DNA from: Dehalococcoidia bacterium
GTDB taxonomy: Bacteria > Chloroflexota > Dehalococcoidia > Lucifugimonadales > JADFKI01
DNA: 64,000 bases
Direction of reading: 5' to 3'
NCBI GenBank assembly: GCA_965204445.1
Contig: OZ241992.1
Coordinates: forward strand, 2,369,773 to 2,433,772
Shown here: piece after piece, positions 18,730-62,155 of the stretch
Layout of the letters: every line of letters starts with the position of its first letter
Position numbering within the stretch: the first letter of the stretch is position 1
Translations under genes and position numbers: made by a program
Notes under the pieces: generated by a model
Databases searched by the model: none
What the model saw: the letters and a program-made list of their open reading frames with translations, nothing else
What the model was told of the DNA's origin: nothing

Positions 18730-18881
18730 TTTGCCAACACAACTCGGAATTCCTCTGTTCTTATGATTTGAGCGCTCTTCTCTGGATTTTCGCTCAACAG
18801 CTTCGTTTGCTGCAAAAATCAATTTGGCCCCCCCCCCGTAAAGAGAAGCGCAAGCGCAACGTTGGTTGACGCGCCGCAGAG
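18721..18881 (-). other. start-less partial duplicate of the upstream membrane-protein gene, containing a G10 run
   Basis: This stretch lies directly after, and in frame with, the stop of ORF 18882-19325. It reads 'LCGASTNVALALLFTGGGAKLIFAANEAVERKSREER...', compared with 'TTVLYGGAKLIFAAKEAVEKKAEQ' in the parent gene. The homopolymer is at 18828-18837. Confidence 0.6.
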
Positions 18882-25492: not shown

Positions 25493-27853
25493 TTAGTTAG
25501 AGACGCTTGTCGTAGAGATGTCTAGCGTCAGCATGAAATTGCCGACGGTTTCGATGTGGTAGGTGGTAGCCTCTATGGTGTAGCTGCCCGCCTGCAGTTG
25601 CTCGGTTATTCGAGAGTCGCCCCGGTTGACGATGGAGCCGGAGTTGCCTACGCCCTCTAGCAGGTAGAGGTAGGTGTCCGCCACATCGTCGGACGAGATG
25701 CTGACGGTTACGCTTGACGCGGCCTCAAGCGTGAATGTGTAGAAGCGCGCATAGCGGGTTCCCGCTTTTGCGGTTGCGGGCGTCTTATCCGATAGGCAAT
25801 CGGCGTTCCATGTGCCGGTTAGCCAACCCAATCCGGTCTTGCGAATGCAGCCGGGCGCCAATGTCGACGCTGATGCGCGCGTGGGAGTTGCCGTAGGAAT
25901 GGTCGTAGACGTCGCCGTGGGCGTGGTTTCCAGCACGGTTACCGGCGTATTCGTCGGCGTGGGCGTATGGGTTGGCGTTGCCGTCGGGATGGTTCCTCCA
26001 AGTTCCGCCACTCTATCGGTCAGTGCATCGACGAGCCCGCGCAACGATTCGATAAGCCTATTCAGCGTTCCCATATCTTGGAACGTTCCCGCCCGGTCGC
26101 GCAACGCCCCGACTTGCTCTTCAAACTCGTCTAGCCCACCGCCTATGGGCGTGGACACGCCGGTTGCGGTTGGCGTGAGCGTAGGGGCGAGTTCGTCCGT
26201 GATGACCGTGCTCGTAGGCGTTGGGATAGATTCGCTTGTGGACGAAACGCTTGTGGACGTGGGCGTATGAGTTGCCGTTGCTGTGGGCGCAGGTTCGTCT
26301 GTTGCCGAAACACTCGTGGAAGTCGGCGTAAGCGTGGGTTCGCCTGTGGCTGAAACGCTCGTTGCCGTGGGCGTGTGAGTCGGTGTTGAAGTTGTTGTGG
26401 GAGCAGGCGTTGACGATCCGCTCACACCGAATAGGTGTACCGTTACATAGATTACGTCCGTACCCAATTGGTCATCTGCATCGTTGGTTACTCGGACTTC
26501 CACCCTATGGAAGGGTCTCGACCATGTATTCAGCCTGGCATCTACGGACAGAACGCCCGAAGAAGAAATGGCGAACACGCGCGGCTCGCCTATAGCGGCG
26601 CGGAGCCTAAACTTAATGGCGTCTCCGTCCGGATCGCAGGCATCGAAATCCTCCAACACCGTGCGCGTTAGCGAATCTCCGTCTATCCAATAAACCGGAT
26701 CTCTTCCTCTAGAGAAGGTAGTGCGTGGTCGGGCTGTGGCGCAGTCTGTGTCATCATAGACGAAGTAAGGCGGACTGTTGACAAGCGTGGGCGTATGAGT
26801 AGGCTCAGGCGTAGGCGTAAGAGTTGGGATTGGCGTTTCTATGGGCGCAGATGTGGCCGGCGGCGTTGACTCGCCAAATTGGTTTTTGCCCCAGCATACT
26901 ACAGCGCCATCCGCGCGAAGACCGCACTTATGGCTCCCGCCACCGCTTATGGATGCGAAGGTTTCACCCGCAGGCGGCGTTGTTTGACCATAATCGTTAA
27001 GCCCCCAGCATACTGCGACTCCGTCATTTCGCAATCCGCAAGTATGCCGAGCGCCGGCGCTTATAGACGCGAAGGTTTCACCCGCAGGCGGCGTTGACTG
27101 ACCGAATCCGTCATAACCCCAACATACCGCAGCGCCATCCGCGCGAAGACCGCAGGCATGACGATGTCCGGCGCTTATGGATGCGAAGGTTTCATCCGCA
27201 GGAGGCGTTGACTGACCGAACCTGTTATCGCCCCAGCATACTGCGGCGCCGTCATTTCGCAGTCCGCAGGTATAAGACGTATTAGCGCTTATAGACGCGA
27301 ATGCGCCCGCAGGAGGCGTTGCCTCGCCATGTATGTTACGCCCTCCCCAGCATACTGCCGCGCCATCCGCGCGAAGACCGCAAGTATGAGAGTAACCGAC
27401 ACTTGCAACGCTTGCAACGCTTATAGACGCGAATGCGCCCGTAGGGGACGTTGGAGGCGCTGACCTATTGTACTTGGCATCACCCCAGCACACTGCCGCA
27501 CCATCCGCGCGAATACCGCAGGCGTGGCGGAATCCAGTGCTAATAGATGTGAAGACACCTGACGGCGGAGAAATCTGATCATGCGCGTTAAGTCCCCAGC
27601 ATACTGCAGCGCCATCCGTGCGAATACCGCAGGTGAGACCGTCTCCGGCGCTTACGGCGCTGAATGTCATTGCGCGCGGTGTGCTTGTGGATGTGGGCGT
27701 GTTGTCGACGCCCTGCTGCGCGCTTGCGTCGTCCGCATTTGCGAGCAGGGTGAACAGCAGCAACGCCACCACTGTGAGGGCGGTGAGGAAGTAGAGCGCG
27801 GATTTAGAACCTATGAACGGGGGGGGGGGGGGGGTAAATCGTATGTTCGGCAT
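25493..27853 (-). CDS. secreted RCC1-repeat protein with beta-sandwich (cadherin-like) domain, Thr/Pro linkers and C-terminal PPC-like domain
   Basis: 786 aa. Signal/TM segment 'ALYFLTALTVVALLLFTLLANA'. About seven repeats of 'H.CGLRADGAAVCWG.N.FGQSTPP'. T/P/S-rich linkers. The C-terminus 'YARFYTFTLEAASSVTVSISSDD..TYLYLL' is pre-peptidase-C-terminal-like. Confidence 0.8.
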   Translation of the reverse strand: MPNIRFTPPPPPFIGSKSALYFLTALTVVALLLFTLLANADDASAQQGVDNTPTSTSTPRAMTFSAVSAGDGLTCGIRTDGAAVCWGLNAHDQISPPSGVFTSISTGFRHACGIRADGAAVCWGDAKYNRSAPPTSPTGAFASISVASVASVGYSHTCGLRADGAAVCWGGRNIHGEATPPAGAFASISANTSYTCGLRNDGAAVCWGDNRFGQSTPPADETFASISAGHRHACGLRADGAAVCWGYDGFGQSTPPAGETFASISAGARHTCGLRNDGVAVCWGLNDYGQTTPPAGETFASISGGGSHKCGLRADGAVVCWGKNQFGESTPPATSAPIETPIPTLTPTPEPTHTPTLVNSPPYFVYDDTDCATARPRTTFSRGRDPVYWIDGDSLTRTVLEDFDACDPDGDAIKFRLRAAIGEPRVFAISSSGVLSVDARLNTWSRPFHRVEVRVTNDADDQLGTDVIYVTVHLFGVSGSSTPAPTTTSTPTHTPTATSVSATGEPTLTPTSTSVSATDEPAPTATATHTPTSTSVSSTSESIPTPTSTVITDELAPTLTPTATGVSTPIGGGLDEFEEQVGALRDRAGTFQDMGTLNRLIESLRGLVDALTDRVAELGGTIPTATPTHTPTPTNTPVTVLETTPTATSTTIPTATPTRASASTLAPGCIRKTGLGWLTGTWNADCLSDKTPATAKAGTRYARFYTFTLEAASSVTVSISSDDVADTYLYLLEGVGNSGSIVNRGDSRITEQLQAGSYTIEATTYHIETVGNFMLTLDISTTSVSN
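26850..27670 (-). repeat. about 114-120-bp tandem coding repeats (RCC1 blades)
   Basis: The recurrent DNA words GCGCCATCCGCGCGAAGACCGCA and CCCCAGCATACTGC are seen six to seven times. Confidence 0.8.
27819..27834 (-). repeat. 16-nt homopolymer (poly-C on the coding strand) in codons 7-12 of the RCC1-repeat gene
   Basis: The plus strand carries G16. It encodes 'TPPPPPF' between the ATG and the signal peptide. Confidence 0.95.
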
Positions 27854-28017
27854 GCTACTACTCCATTCACTAAGGTTGAGGGCTTATGAATAATGATACG
27901 CCGCTAATTTACGGAAGTCAAATGGGGATTGGCAGAAATTGACGGGGATGGCAAATCTTAGCTGATATTTCAAATCTATAAGCGTTGCAATTTGAGAATA
28001 CCTACTGGGAATGCCAA

Positions 28018-46879: not shown

Positions 46880-49459
46880 CTATCCGCCGCGAGCGCGTTC
46901 CTGGAGTTCGTAAAGCTTATTGATCGCCTCTAGGGGCGTCATAGCGGCTACTTCGAGGTTCAGAATATCGTCCACCACGGGCGGGGTGAAGTCTATTAGG
47001 GGCATCTGCTGCGCCGGCTTGGCGGATCGTCTGCCGCGCCGCGCCGCGCCGTTTGCGCGATTGCGGCTGCCCTCGAGTTCGCCTAGAAACTCCCATGCGC
47101 GGTTGACCACGCCGCTCGGCATTCCCGCAAGCCGCGCTACATGCACGCCGTAGCTCTTGTCCGCGCCGCCCGGCACGATGCGCCGCAGGAAGGCGACCCT
47201 GCCCTTGTTCTCCGAAACCGCAACATTGTAGTTGCAGGCGCGCGGCAGCGTGTCCGAAAGCTGCGTGAGTTCGTGGTAGTGCGTGGCGAACAACGTCTTG
47301 CAGCCCAAGCGCGGATGATTATGCACATACTCCGCCACGGCGCGCGCAATCGCAAGCCCGTCGTAGGTGCTTGTGCCGCGCCCAATCTCATCAAGCACAA
47401 TCAGCGAGCGCGGCGTGGCGTGGTTCAGGATGGACGCCGTTTCCACCATCTCAACCATAAAAGTGGACTGCCCCATAGCCAGGTCATCCTGCAAGCCCAC
47501 GCGCGTGAAGATGCGATCGCATAGCCCAATCGTCGCCGAATCGGCCGGCACGAAGCTTCCAATCTGCGCCATCAGCGTTATCACCGCAACTTGACGGATA
47601 TAGGTTGACTTGCCCGCCATATTGGGGCCGGTCAGCACCACAAGCTGCTCATCGCTGCAAGAGAGCGTAGTATCGTTGGCGACGAAATCGCCCTCCGGCA
47701 GCATCCGCTCCACAACCGGATGCCGCCCCTGCCGAATGTCTATTGCGCCGCCTTCGTTCAGCGCGGGGCGGGCATAGCCGTAGCGCGAGGCTACCTCCGC
47801 CAGCGCCGCGAACACATCCACGCCGGCGATGGCGCTTGCGGTCTGCATTATGGGATCCGCGGCGGCGGCAACCTGCTGGCACACCTGCCGAAACAGCGCA
47901 TTCTCAAGCTCGCTTACGCGGTCTTGCGCGTTCAGAATCAGCGATTCGTACTCTTTCATCTCAGGCGTGATGAAGCGCTCGCCGCCGACGAGCGTCTGCC
48001 GCCGCACATAGTCTTTGGGCGCCTGCGATAGGTTGGGGTTGCTAATCTCTATGTAATAGCCGAATACCTTGTTGTAGCCGACCTTGAGCGATTTGATGCC
48101 GGTGCGCCGGCGCTCGCGCTGCTCTAGGCTTGCGATATAGTCTTGCGCGCTGCGGGTTGCGTTGCGAACTTCGTCCAAGTCCGGCGAAAAGCCTTCGCGG
48201 ATAACCCTGCCTTCGCCCACAATCAGCGGCGGATCGTCGCTTATGGCGCGCTTGATGAGCGCCGAAGTTTCGTCGTTGTCCCCGATGCGCGCCGCAATTC
48301 GGCTCACCTGCGGGGCGTCATCGTCTTCGCGCAGGATGTCGCGGATTTTGGGCGCGGCGTCGATGCTGTTGGCGAGGCTAACAAGGTCGCGCGGCGTGGC
48401 GCTGAAACCGCGCACTTTGTTCACCAATCGTTCCATATCGGCGACGGCGTCCAGCAGCATAATCACACGCTCGCGCCTCAGCGCGCTGCGGTGAAACCAC
48501 TCCACGGCGTCTTGACGCAGAACCAGTCTATCTACATCGAGCAGCGGCTGCCCCAGCCAGCGCCGCAGCCGCCGCCCGCCCATGGATGTCTTGGTCAGAT
48601 CCAGCACCGAAAACAGCGATGTGTTGACTGCGCCCCAGCGCCCGCCCTCATAGAGTTCAAGATTGCGGCGCGTCTGTTGATCAAGCACCATATATTCGGA
48701 TGTGGAGTAGGTGTGCAGCGCGGCTATCTGTCCGACTGCGCTGCGCTGCGTTTGGGTGAGGTAGTCTATGACTGCGCCCGCGGCGCGCGCCGCAAGCGGC
48801 AGGTTTTCGCAGCCAAAGCCTTCCAGCGATGCCACGCCGAAATGATTCAGCAGCGTTTCGCGCGCCCAGTCCGGGTGAAAGGCGTCGTCCGCAGCCTGCG
48901 TCAGCATAACGCCTTCCTCAAGCGCCATATCGGCGTGCGATTCGGGGACGAGCAGTTCGGAGGGCATAAGGCGCGCAAGCTCAACGGGGAGCTGCGATAG
49001 CGCGAATTGGCTGGTGGCGAACTCGCTGGTGGTGATGTCCACATACGCAAGGCCCGCAGCATCGCCTTCCGAAATCAGCGCCGCCAAGTAGTTGTTCGCC
49101 TTCTGCTCCAGCAGCGAATCTTCGACGATAGTGCCGGGCGTAACCACGCGCACCACTTCGCGATCAACGATGCCCCTAGACTTGGCGGGATCGCTGGTCT
49201 GTTCGCAGATGGCTACCTTGTAGCCTTTCTTGATGAGGCGCGCCAAGTACGATTCCAGCGCATGGTAGGGTATGCCTGCAAGCGGGACGCGCTGACCTCT
49301 GCCGAATTCGCGCGATGTGAGCGCAATCTCGAGTTCGCGCGAAATGGTACGGGCGTCGTCGTCAAACGTCTCATAGAAATCACCCATTCGGAATAGCAGA
49401 ATTGCGTTTGGGTGTTGGCGCTTGACGCCCAGATATTGCCGTCGTACGGGAGTAGTCAT
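46880..49459 (-). CDS. mutS: DNA mismatch repair protein MutS
   Basis: 'TPVRRQYLGVK' mismatch-binding N-terminus, Walker A 'GPNMAGKSTY' and 'DEIGRGTSTYDG'. The start is at ATG 49459. Confidence 0.95.
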   Translation of the reverse strand: MTTPVRRQYLGVKRQHPNAILLFRMGDFYETFDDDARTISRELEIALTSREFGRGQRVPLAGIPYHALESYLARLIKKGYKVAICEQTSDPAKSRGIVDREVVRVVTPGTIVEDSLLEQKANNYLAALISEGDAAGLAYVDITTSEFATSQFALSQLPVELARLMPSELLVPESHADMALEEGVMLTQAADDAFHPDWARETLLNHFGVASLEGFGCENLPLAARAAGAVIDYLTQTQRSAVGQIAALHTYSTSEYMVLDQQTRRNLELYEGGRWGAVNTSLFSVLDLTKTSMGGRRLRRWLGQPLLDVDRLVLRQDAVEWFHRSALRRERVIMLLDAVADMERLVNKVRGFSATPRDLVSLANSIDAAPKIRDILREDDDAPQVSRIAARIGDNDETSALIKRAISDDPPLIVGEGRVIREGFSPDLDEVRNATRSAQDYIASLEQRERRRTGIKSLKVGYNKVFGYYIEISNPNLSQAPKDYVRRQTLVGGERFITPEMKEYESLILNAQDRVSELENALFRQVCQQVAAAADPIMQTASAIAGVDVFAALAEVASRYGYARPALNEGGAIDIRQGRHPVVERMLPEGDFVANDTTLSCSDEQLVVLTGPNMAGKSTYIRQVAVITLMAQIGSFVPADSATIGLCDRIFTRVGLQDDLAMGQSTFMVEMVETASILNHATPRSLIVLDEIGRGTSTYDGLAIARAVAEYVHNHPRLGCKTLFATHYHELTQLSDTLPRACNYNVAVSENKGRVAFLRRIVPGGADKSYGVHVARLAGMPSGVVNRAWEFLGELEGSRNRANGAARRGRRSAKPAQQMPLIDFTPPVVDDILNLEVAAMTPLEAINKLYELQERARGG

Positions 49460-61856: not shown

Positions 61857-61934
61857 TATCCCCTAACCTAAAAAAAGCCTATAGAGGACGGACGCCGCAT
61901 ATGAAGCCCACGCGAACAGCCGGCATATTTTCTA

Positions 61935-61951
61935 CCCCCCCCCCCCCCCCC
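61935..61951 (+). repeat. 17-nt poly-C tract upstream of the GLUG-repeat gene
   Basis: C17 lies about 205 nt upstream of ATG 62156, inside a short ORF 'MKPTRTAGIFSTPPPPPAIP...' that starts at 61901. Confidence 0.95.
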
Positions 61952-62155
61952 GCAATACCACTGCATTGCAAAGACGCGCGCGCCAAAACTGCTGTCGAGT
62001 TTCATCTTGGAATCGCGCGCAACGAATACGCGCGCGCGCCCAAACCGATATTCTTATTATGCGCTTGATCGCGTAACCCGCGAACTATACCCTGATACAG
62101 GGTTTTCGTAGCAAGATCCGAACTCATAGTAGCCGTAAGGTGAGAGTAACCGAAT

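Follow-up and report, generated by a model that had tools for sequence, protein, structure and literature searches.

Simple-repeat phase variation is a textbook phenomenon in a handful of animal pathogens and commensals. To our knowledge, it has hardly been considered in environmental or mutualistic symbionts or in Chloroflexota, and a full-text literature search found no paper linking sponge symbionts, Dehalococcoidia or Chloroflexi to homopolymer phase variation. The closest described counterparts of the locus analysed here, a C16 tract in the gene of a secreted RCC1-repeat protein, are pilC (poly-G) and opa (CTCTT) of Neisseria. There, as here, the repeat follows the start codon and precedes the mature protein, in the region coding for the leader peptide; length changes that are not multiples of three abolish translation, and changes by multiples of three alter only the cleaved leader (both predicted in our case). 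The multi-copy families are likewise mostly OFF at any time, and mismatch repair is present. The resemblance is one of mechanism, predicted here from the sequence, and there is no sequence relation to PilC/Opa. Moreover, the tracts described here reach 27 nt (about 8-13 nt in Neisseria) and are always poly-C on the coding strand, and the host is a monoderm-type Chloroflexota sponge symbiont, whereas Neisseria is a human mucosal pathogen.

The poly-G:C phasome of Campylobacter jejuni and Helicobacter comprises about 20-30 contingency loci per genome. Our genome shares with it the genome-wide occurrence of G/C homopolymers without long A/T runs, the enrichment in surface-structure genes, glycosyltransferases and DNA methyltransferases, and the length differences between close genomes. 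Campylobacter and Helicobacter genomes are AT-rich and lack MutS1/MutL-type mismatch repair. By contrast, the source genome of this study, a 3.2-Mb MAG of a sponge-associated Dehalococcoidia, has 60 % GC and encodes MutS and MutL, so it does not share the absence of MutS1/MutL. Their tracts are typically 8-13 nt long and scattered in coding sequences, whereas those described here (10-27 nt) sit in a few conserved, duplicated 5' cassettes. As in phasevarions (phase-variable Mod of Haemophilus, Neisseria and Helicobacter), two N6_N4 DNA methyltransferase genes carry 5' tracts, but the repeat is a homopolymer and not a tetra- or pentanucleotide. Finally, Buchnera and Blochmannia, where poly(A) frameshifts are rescued by transcriptional slippage, are likewise host-associated and have many genes broken at homopolymers yet otherwise intact. 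Their tracts are poly-A, scattered through housekeeping genes of extremely AT-rich, repair-poor genomes, whereas those described here are poly-C, located at the 5' end and specific to secreted/surface gene families.

Anatomy of the poly-C tract

The window is the whole stretch of DNA analysed, 64,000 nt of Dehalococcoidia bacterium GCA_965204445.1 (contig OZ241992.1, 2,369,773-2,433,772), and coordinates are relative to it. A 16-nt homopolymer had been reported at 27819-27834 in a sequence-only reading of the window, and these coordinates were exactly right: inspection revealed G16 on the + strand, which is C16 on the coding (-) strand. The tract and the elements 5' of it are as follows.

27819-27834, - strand: homopolymer tract C16 (coding strand), encoding the prolines of T-P5 in the signal-peptide n-region; proposed slipped-strand switch
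27835-27853, - strand: start codon ATG (27853-27851) and conserved leader ATG CCG AAC ATA CGA TTT A (MPNIRF-T)
27861-27864, - strand: Shine-Dalgarno (SD) sequence GGAG, 7 nt 5' of the ATG, kept in paralogous and orthologous cassettes (gaatGGAGtag)
27893-27921, - strand: sigma-70-like promoter TTGACT-17 nt-TATCAT (10/12 matches; predicted 5'UTR of ~33 nt)

The distance from the ATG to the start of C16 is 19 nt. The coding strand continues from the leader as C16-G TTC ATA GGT TCT AAA, giving MPNIRFTPPPPPFIGSKS and then a hydrophobic segment. The tract had been placed between the start codon and the signal peptide; it does lie 3' of the ATG, but inside the signal-peptide n-region and not strictly before the signal peptide. 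A homologous promoter (TTGACT...TATAAT) is also present 5' of L002 and L001. An Rfam search of the whole window matched no family, and therefore no known riboswitch or leader RNA is present there.

A chance origin of the focal tract is excluded, and the rarity claimed for it was borne out. Overlapping G9/C9 matches numbered 19 in the window against 0.30 expected from shuffles, and the genome-wide run-length distribution is bimodal (15 8-mers and 8 9-mers; the 46 runs that measure 10-27 nt are C/G without exception and form a second mode at 14-18). There are no A/T runs of at least 10 nt in the genome.

The encoded RCC1-repeat protein

The tract lies near the start of the gene of a secreted protein, organised as follows.

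25493-27853, - strand: ORF of 786 aa with a signal peptide, seven RCC1_2 blades, a cadherin-like segment, Thr/Pro-rich linkers around a helical segment and a C-terminal PPC domain
27719-27853, - strand: predicted Sec signal peptide, residues 1-45 (n-region with R5 and K17; h-region ALYFLTALTVVALLLFTLLA, residues 19-38; c-region NADDASA/Q)
26819-27670, - strand: RCC1-like repeat (beta-propeller) region, residues ~62-345 (PF13540, 7 stretches; PF25390 RCC1-like domain, residues 178-335)
25556-25747, - strand: PPC (pre-peptidase C-terminal)-like domain, residues 703-766 (22.2 bits, under the 25.9 cut-off; E = 2.6e-4)

The signal peptide was called by eye from the translation, with cleavage after ASA (43-45) and before Q (residues 45/46), and the tract falls in the predicted cleaved-off part. 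Assignment as an RCC1-like repeat protein follows Pfam (RCC1_2, PF13540: 168.2 bits over 7 stretches, against a curated cut-off of 22). PPC scores 50 bits in a paralog at C1:2968536. The only Pfam matches of the focal protein were RCC1_2, the RCC1-like domain and PPC, and no PilC or Opa homology was found.

Reading frames around the tract

27804-27813, - strand: OFF-frame stops 2-4 codons past the tract; one shifted frame ends at TAG (27813-27811), the other at TAA (27806-27804)

The number of codons open after the tract is 4, 774 and 1 in the three frames. A length change that is not a multiple of three would thus, as had been proposed, put the protein out of frame, each OFF frame meeting a stop 2-4 codons after the tract. 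The motif GTTCATAGGTTCTAAA, in the region of these stops, is conserved across the leader-C copies. Inspection found no credible downstream start; the in-frame GTG/TTG codons within the h-region have no SD and would delete the n-region. The homopolymer (C16, beyond the minimum of about 8 nt for such loci) is inside the 5' coding region, and a change other than by multiples of three is predicted to truncate the product with no start to bypass it. By inspection, the repeat is within the signal-peptide coding region, so in-frame variation would leave the mature protein unaltered. As claimed, the ORF is in frame (ON) as assembled, 786 aa and open, at a tract length good only to ~+/-1 because G15 is no less abundant than G16 among the unitigs of the source sample. 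Assignment of the focal locus to slipped-strand phase-variation loci of known kind is well supported.

A genome-wide set of poly-C tracts

Read as poly-C, 35 of the 46 tracts adjoin the 5' end of an open frame of at least 250 codons; only 2 do so when read as poly-G. As background, such a frame opens no more than 90 nt away from 3.7 % of random positions. In 20 of the 35, both OFF frames stop within 5 codons. The tracts sort into a small number of families; within these the flanks are conserved and a signal peptide follows the tract immediately, and the cassette layout common to them is SD-ATG-short leader-poly-C-signal peptide. Some tracts are close neighbours: three fall within 3 kb (C1:1718030, 1719464 and 1720880), two are 0.5 kb apart (C1:1930534 and 1931002) and two 5 kb apart (C1:2443861 and 2448414). 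The genes include RCC1, cadherin, LRR, subtilase, GLUG, SGNH/AlgX-like, GT2 and N6_N4 DNA methyltransferase classes, so that multiple loci per genome are enriched in surface, secreted and modification genes. The window itself holds another tract.

61935-61951, + strand: tract C17 (family D), part of a short upstream ORF and ~205 nt ahead of the GLUG surface-protein gene that starts with ATG 62156

Only 3 of 24 copies of family A are in frame. Its lengths are uniform within a genome (C15/C18 here, C17 in the related genome G007); this uniformity is suspicious and could reflect consensus bias. We considered whether the excess of n mod 3 = 0 in family A marks a hidden, frameshift-expressed state, which was unsupported, G007 preferring n mod 3 = 2. 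Family B (SGNH-like) was left out of the ON/OFF counts because either of two ATG codons (-43 or -18) may be the leader start; in-frame stops occur in some copies, and translation could also begin at an M/V/L position downstream.

The genes left out of frame retain ORFs of 400-1277 codons without other lesions. This would also be expected if the tracts acted as a leaky rheostat, in which +/-1 slippage of RNA polymerase or ribosomes (CCC-C sites, poly-proline stalling) mixes frames from any length and so tunes expression or rescues OFF alleles. Tracts of 14-27 nt are longer than the RNA:DNA hybrid, EF-P is encoded, and the leader ORF of the C16 GT2 gene ends at ATATGA, overlapping the canonical ATG (MNKVSVIIPTRN), which would allow translational coupling. 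Transcriptional slippage is established at long A/T homopolymers, but slippage at G/C runs is generally weaker. Moreover, out-of-frame copies show no consistently preferred class (family A mostly has n mod 3 = 0 in this genome and 2 in G007), and stops right after the tract in both OFF frames fit the requirements of a clean switch. We consider frame mixing of this kind, in place of a DNA-level switch, unlikely; it is compatible with switching at the DNA level, not exclusive of it.

The two N6_N4 DNA methyltransferase genes with 5' tracts are at C1:3031575 (C12, fused to an Mrr_cat nuclease domain) and C1:1144915 (C20). A homolog in G004 has C11 behind a homologous leader, and no tract was found in the orthologs of G007 and G018 (85 % identical). 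Hypermutability through loss of mismatch repair was rejected: MutS_V matches lie in intact ORFs of 878 aa and 831 aa (MutS and a second MutS homolog) and the MutL match (DNA_mis_repair) in an ORF of 616 aa that is likewise intact. Loss of repair thus does not contribute to hypermutability.

Comparison with related genomes

Exact copies of the 17-nt leader occur four times in this genome, six times in G018 and five times in G007. The leader-plus-tract copies of the three congeneric genomes (G000/G007/G018; 16) range from C8 to C21. Four of the 16 exact-leader copies are in frame; the other 12, OFF-length variants of the sort that the sequence-only reading had proposed to look for, are out of frame with ORFs otherwise intact. 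The comparison of strains proposed there gave another length in G007 (C21 in a relative of the focal gene, against C16) and no tract in the sister species G018, whose ortholog of the focal gene is 90.7 % identical, intact and has a single T-P. An orthologous subtilase gene has C14/C16/C19 between identical flanks. A single-copy glycosyltransferase GT2 gene, with 99 % identical proteins, differs only in its tract (C17 vs C16/C16). Tract length is therefore polymorphic between close genomes while flanks and ORF are conserved. Runs of at least 13 were found in 20 of 30 relatives from the genus and order. Tracts positioned in or ahead of signal peptides also occur in a different family of the order, and those of G029 lie between the h-region and AHA/QQ. 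The JGI metagenome contigs gave 0 matches to leader+tract or tract+downstream patterns.

These lengths bear on a static role of the encoded prolines. The in-frame tract encodes P5, and the leader MxxIRF...P(n) is conserved, as a poly-proline spacer with a structural or secretion role in the n-region would be, the nucleotide homopolymer being incidental. Such a spacer fits the data poorly and we regard it as very improbable: lengths span the frame classes with 12/16 leader-C copies out of frame, CCC is the only codon used, and the G018 ortholog is intact with a single T-P.

The same comparison bears on whether the tracts are non-adaptive hot spots with no switching role, homopolymers expanded by drift in a host-restricted symbiont that inactivate dispensable genes. 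Pseudogenisation would account for most tract genes being out of frame as assembled and for the truncated or interrupted copies (C1:969649, 258 codons; C1:1931002, 104 codons; C4-T-C6 copies at C1:807360 and in G018). However, the tracts are limited to one base type, one strand orientation, the 5' end and particular gene classes; the out-of-frame genes are otherwise free of lesions, and genomes with GT2 in and out of frame share it at 99 % identity. The flanks are conserved, OFF-frame stops included, and the trait recurs across an order. We judge decay of this kind to be quite improbable.

Length variation within samples

Within-sample lengths were taken from k=31 assembly-graph unitigs of runs X1-X3. 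These runs are not independent of the genome, because they probably come from the source sample of its assembly. At the focal locus, with perfect flanks, G16 had depths of 16.1, 21 and 100 and G15 of 22, 26.8 and 134.4 in X1, X2 and X3 respectively; together they add up to the flank depths (41, 47.5 and 241). The ratio of G16 to G15 is ~43:57 in the source-sample unitigs, where minor flank haplotypes are also present, and the single-copy GT2 tract appears as C15/C16/C17. PCR, sequencing or consensus slippage, or co-resident strains, could produce these mixtures. The length distribution that the sequence-only reading had wanted inspected thus holds both G15 and G16 and not one length, a mixture that may be biological or technical. 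As assembled lengths are uncertain by about +/-1, ON/OFF tallies are soft.

Logan contigs break within the focal tract, and therefore narrow stretches are needed to read lengths. The only indel in these contigs (-2) was rejected as a focal variant; its flanks differ (4 mismatches, as in the C14+A copy at C1:2968536), which points to a paralog. Other samples gave only related strains or paralogs (G14, T+G13), which is population variation and not locus-specific.

Long homopolymers are error-prone and the exact length of this one is uncertain, as would be the case for a sequencing or assembly artefact (e.g. a poly-G artefact or consensus error). We rejected this explanation, which is scarcely credible given the support from several assemblies and runs: conserved unique flanks border the tract on either side in each of three genomes assembled independently, at least four runs (two samples) have unitigs that read into and across it, and its gene context is coherent. 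Neither one fixed length nor an artefact, the outcomes named beforehand as speaking against a switch, was observed.

Discussion

We consider it probable that the C16 tract is a hypermutable homopolymer whose slipped-strand mispairing turns translation ON and OFF, and that it belongs to a genome-wide set of such units. Everything expected of a slipped-strand contingency switch at the sequence level is present, and the earlier proposal of a candidate phase-variation switch is supported to that extent. Transcription would be driven by the TTGACT/TATCAT promoter, and ribosomes would initiate at the SD-ATG, 19 nt 5' of the tract. With n mod 3 = 1 (e.g. 13, 16, 19), the focal locus would be ON: translation would pass the proline stretch in the n-region and yield the secreted RCC1/PPC protein, and in-frame length changes would merely give more or fewer prolines in the cleaved-off part. 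Other lengths would lead into TAG or TAA 2-4 codons past the tract and yield a peptide of about 13-16 aa. Slipped-strand mispairing during replication would move the tract between these states, presumably reversibly. RNA polymerase or ribosomes may also slip on very long C runs, blurring the ON/OFF switch.

The focal locus would be one of ~46 poly-C tracts ('phasome'), apparently built into a few portable 5' cassettes on secreted, eukaryote-like or surface-modifying families, plus GT2 and DNA methyltransferases. With such a set of switches, exposed proteins would occur in many combinations within a population, plausibly a form of bet-hedging against phages or recognition by the host. On balance, the evidence leans towards a cassette-based phasome having evolved in a sponge-associated Dehalococcoidia lineage that comprises several species of one genus, similar tracts being present in other families of its order. 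Dozens of very long poly-C tracts, built into portable promoter-SD-ATG-leader-signal-peptide modules, would then control by stochastic switching the production of eukaryote-like secreted proteins (RCC1, LRR, cadherin, subtilase, GLUG), of surface-modifying enzymes and of DNA methyltransferases.

Annotation will label most tract genes as pseudogenes or as truncated, and the tracts may cause breaks or wrong calls in short-read MAGs; this class of genes may therefore be systematically under-counted. The claim is directly testable with existing long-read data from the same samples.

If true, no contingency-locus system would have been described before in Chloroflexota or in a symbiont of an early-branching animal, and the system would imply an antigenic-variation-like bet-hedging against sponge innate recognition, phagocytosis or phages. 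A recent study reports that eukaryote-like repeat proteins can change the phagocytosis of bacteria by sponges (PMC13747020). If the tracts switch, sponge symbionts would vary proteins of the very class for which that study reports such a change, and tract switching would offer a concrete, testable mechanism for population heterogeneity within the host.

Reading frames around the focal tract

The sequence-only reading had placed a 16-nt homopolymer between the start codon and the signal peptide of the secreted RCC1-repeat protein, with the gene in frame as assembled. Both its coordinates and its coding-strand reading were confirmed on the sequence, together with the following features.

25493..27853, minus strand: focal ORF, open as assembled, 786 aa
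27819-27834: homopolymer, G16 on the plus strand and C16 on the coding (minus) strand, read from the sequence
27864-27861, minus strand: Shine-Dalgarno GGAG, 7 nt before the ATG, read from the sequence
27921-27893, minus strand: promoter TTGACT-17-TATCAT, read from the sequence
27813-27811, minus strand: out-of-frame stop TAG
27806-27804, minus strand: out-of-frame stop TAA

The coding strand runs ATG CCG AAC ATA CGA TTT A-C16-G TTC ATA GGT TCT AAA. The product begins MPNIRF-T-P5-FIGSKS; a hydrophobic core of 20 residues and NADDASA/QQ come next (slash at the predicted cleavage site). By inspection this is a predicted Sec signal peptide with the tract inside its n-region. The shifted frames past the tract are open for 4 and 1 codons only, and the in-frame downstream start candidates (GTG and TTG only) both lie within the hydrophobic core and have no Shine-Dalgarno. 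Since both shifted frames stop at once and no later start is backed by a Shine-Dalgarno, any length change that is not a multiple of three should abolish the protein. The claimed rarity of such a run also held: the window contains 19 overlapping G/C 9-mers against 0.30 expected from shuffles, which excludes a chance origin.

The mature protein carries seven RCC1_2 blades (168 bits), a cadherin-like segment, Thr/Pro linkers and a PPC-like C-terminus. At 27400-27640, in the RCC1 repeats, the source sample's Logan contigs join in more than one way (skips of 139-161 nt and a 232-nt step back), which would fit either copy-number variation of the blades or ambiguous assembly where blades are nearly identical.

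Tract length in the sequencing runs

Read-level data were Logan contigs (k=31 unitigs), not single reads, from sponge or sponge-metagenome samples. Over a wide stretch the contigs break inside the focal tract. Within a narrower stretch of 91 nt, each of the three runs of sample S1 (X1-X3, from which the genome was probably assembled) gave two spanning unitigs with perfect flanks, G16 (depth 16.1, 21 and 100) and G15 (22, 26.8 and 134.4), which together match the flank depth (41, 47.5 and 241 respectively). In X4, a run from a second sample, G15 was present, with no G16 among the pieces listed. The single-copy GT2 glycosyltransferase tract, which has no paralogs, behaved likewise, with C15/C16/C17 depths of 25.2/42.6/29.4 in run X2 and 100.8/170/129.4 in run X3. 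Minor flank haplotypes at the focal tract indicate that co-resident strains exist. The length heterogeneity that the sequence-only reading proposed to look for is thus in the data, with the assembled in-frame state making up about half of the signal at most; unitigs do not distinguish biological from technical slippage. A run that was itself a sequencing or assembly artefact fits the data poorly.

A portable leader

The 17-nt leader of the focal gene (family C, ATGCCGAACATACGATTTA-C(n)) has exact copies in the source genome (4) and in two relatives of the same genus, G018 (6) and G007 (5, plus 1 with one mismatch). Its passengers differ (RCC1+PPC in the focal gene, cadherin+LRR+RCC1, and subtilase S8+RCC1+PPC), and judged from these sequences the leader is portable. 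Tract lengths are C4-T-C6, 16, 16 and 14 in the source genome, 8, 16, 11, C4-T-C6, 19 and 10 in G018, and 14, 17, 16, 18, 21 and 17 in G007. The subtilase orthologs of the three genomes have identical flanks around C14, C16 and C19. No more than 4 of the 16 copies are in frame with the ATG, and the downstream frames are still open for 368-1277 codons; decay of the tract genes fits the data poorly, as does a static proline spacer. A slipped-strand contingency locus is favoured by the C8-C21 span, the few in-frame copies and the immediate stops in shifted frames. The interrupted tract ACCCC-T-CCCCCC occurs in two orthologous copies (C1:807360 and G018:C3:3048085), out of frame in both; these look like stabilised, locked-OFF or decaying copies.

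Comparison with related genomes, also suggested earlier, revealed variation at the focal gene itself. G018 has its true ortholog, L001 (an intact 789-aa ORF starting MRFTPFNSK, 90.7 % identical over 781 aa), which reads ACT CCA at the tract position and has no tract. The more diverged relative in G007 (L002, 952 aa) shares the promoter, Shine-Dalgarno and leader and carries C21, in frame. The tract has therefore been gained or lost, and resized, while the protein barely changes.

Tracts across the genome

In the source genome (2 contigs, 3.22 Mb, 60 % GC; the window is C1:2369773-2433772) the homopolymer spectrum is bimodal, with 15 runs of length 8, 8 of length 9 and then 46 of 10-27 nt (mode 14-18; split evenly on the plus strand, 23 C and 23 G). 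No A/T run of at least 10 nt occurs in the whole genome. Read as poly-C, 35 of the 46 tracts adjoin a frame that stays open for 250 codons or more, vs 2 when read as poly-G; of random positions, just 3.7 % are no farther than 90 nt from where such a frame opens. For 20 of the 35, the other two frames each run into a stop within 5 codons. One C10 run (18828-18837, plus strand; G10 on the minus strand) lies outside all leader cassettes.

Oriented as poly-C, the tract flanks sort into few families. Families A and E (about 18 copies) precede GLUG-motif proteins of about 580 aa, with the signal peptide directly after the tract. The family A cassette is AGGTGA-N5-ATG...ATACGTTTTAGTTTTTATTCA-C(n)-ATAAAAATCTAAAAAAGTCAAGC (for example C1:654162, 723996, 1200931 and 2999811); family E (3 copies) has unlike flanks, CTCTCT-C(n)-GCGATAGAAGCC. 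Family B (about 10 copies) precedes membrane-anchored SGNH/AlgX-like proteins of about 412 aa. Family D (5 copies) lies in short upstream ORFs. Its flank, ...ATTTTCTA-C(n)-GCAATACCACTGCA, is conserved, with C24-AATACCACTGCA in the C1:1133104 copy. One copy is within the window.

61935-61951: family D tract C17, in short upstream ORF MKPTRTAGIFST-P5-... (region 61901-62155)

About 205 nt after it, a GLUG surface-protein gene has its own Shine-Dalgarno, ATG (62156) and signal peptide; the tract is possibly a uORF element, a promoter spacer or a cassette remnant.

In-frame family A copies are rare (2/15 in the source genome, 1/9 in G007 plus G018), which fits a mostly-OFF family. Lengths are uniform within a genome and mostly out of frame (C15 x6 and C18 x4 in the source genome, C17 x5 in G007). 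The out-of-frame class is not shared between the genomes, a point against a hidden functional frame; the uniformity could stem from gene conversion among the cassettes, from a mutational equilibrium or from consensus bias in the assembly.

Single-copy genes

Single genes with a tract include the GT2 glycosyltransferase and two N6_N4 DNA methyltransferases, all outside the window.

C1:2084907 (L055:1484-1500): GT2 tract, C17
C1:3031575: tract C12, in frame, of a methyltransferase fused to an Mrr_cat nuclease domain
C1:1144915: methyltransferase tract, C20

The GT2 protein is 99 % identical in the source genome, G007 and G018, with near-identical flanks; the tract is C17 in the source genome (in frame with an upstream Shine-Dalgarno and ATG) vs C16 in the other two. 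The canonical start ATG AAT AAA GTA... (MNKVSVIIPTRN) lies 6 nt past the tract. With C16 the leader ORF stops at ATATGA, which overlaps this start and points to coupling by termination and reinitiation instead of full silencing. Runs of this length could make RNA polymerase or the ribosome slip, which would render a switch leaky. The C1:3031575 methyltransferase has a homolog in the same-genus G004 with C11 behind a homologous leader, and tractless orthologs in G007 and G018. Both methyltransferases are candidates for phasevarion-like phase variation.

Distribution in relatives

C/G runs of at least 13 nt occur in 20 of the 30 relatives searched. They are patchy within the genus: G004, G007 and G018 gave more than 100 overlapping matches, and G001, G002, G003 and G014 none. 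As these four are single-contig genomes, the absence is not a fragmentation artefact. G029 belongs to a different family of the order; its tracts sit either between the hydrophobic core and the AHA/QQ cleavage site or 3 codons past an ATG ahead of a signal peptide. Tract settings are more heterogeneous in G019 and G025 (also other families), where some tracts (L075 and L083 respectively) follow a shared inverted-repeat element (CCGGGAGTCTGAGGGTGTCCCTCAGATAT...) and not a gene start, possibly a mobile or REP-like element with a poly-C tail.

Proposed switch and its setting

The focal tract is best read as a translational switch in which replication slippage would change poly-C length, placed so that in-frame changes would touch only the cleaved leader. 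Neisseria pilC and opa are alike in this respect, with switching here inferred from sequence, and the arrangement across the genome is similar to the Campylobacter/Helicobacter phasome. Neisseria and Haemophilus, unlike Campylobacter, have mismatch repair, and the genome resembles the former in encoding it despite the many long tracts, with a second MutS homolog (831 aa) besides the following.

47072-47641 (C1:2416844-2417413), minus strand: MutS_V domain of an intact 878-aa MutS
C1:593765, outside the window: MutL, 616 aa

EF-P is encoded, which should allow translation of the poly-proline leader. A full-text literature search found no paper tying sponge symbionts, Dehalococcoidia or Chloroflexi to homopolymer phase variation. 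The mechanism itself is of an already known kind; the interest lies in the taxon and host concerned, in how many and how long the tracts are and in their cassette organisation, and the proposed switch is testable on existing long reads.
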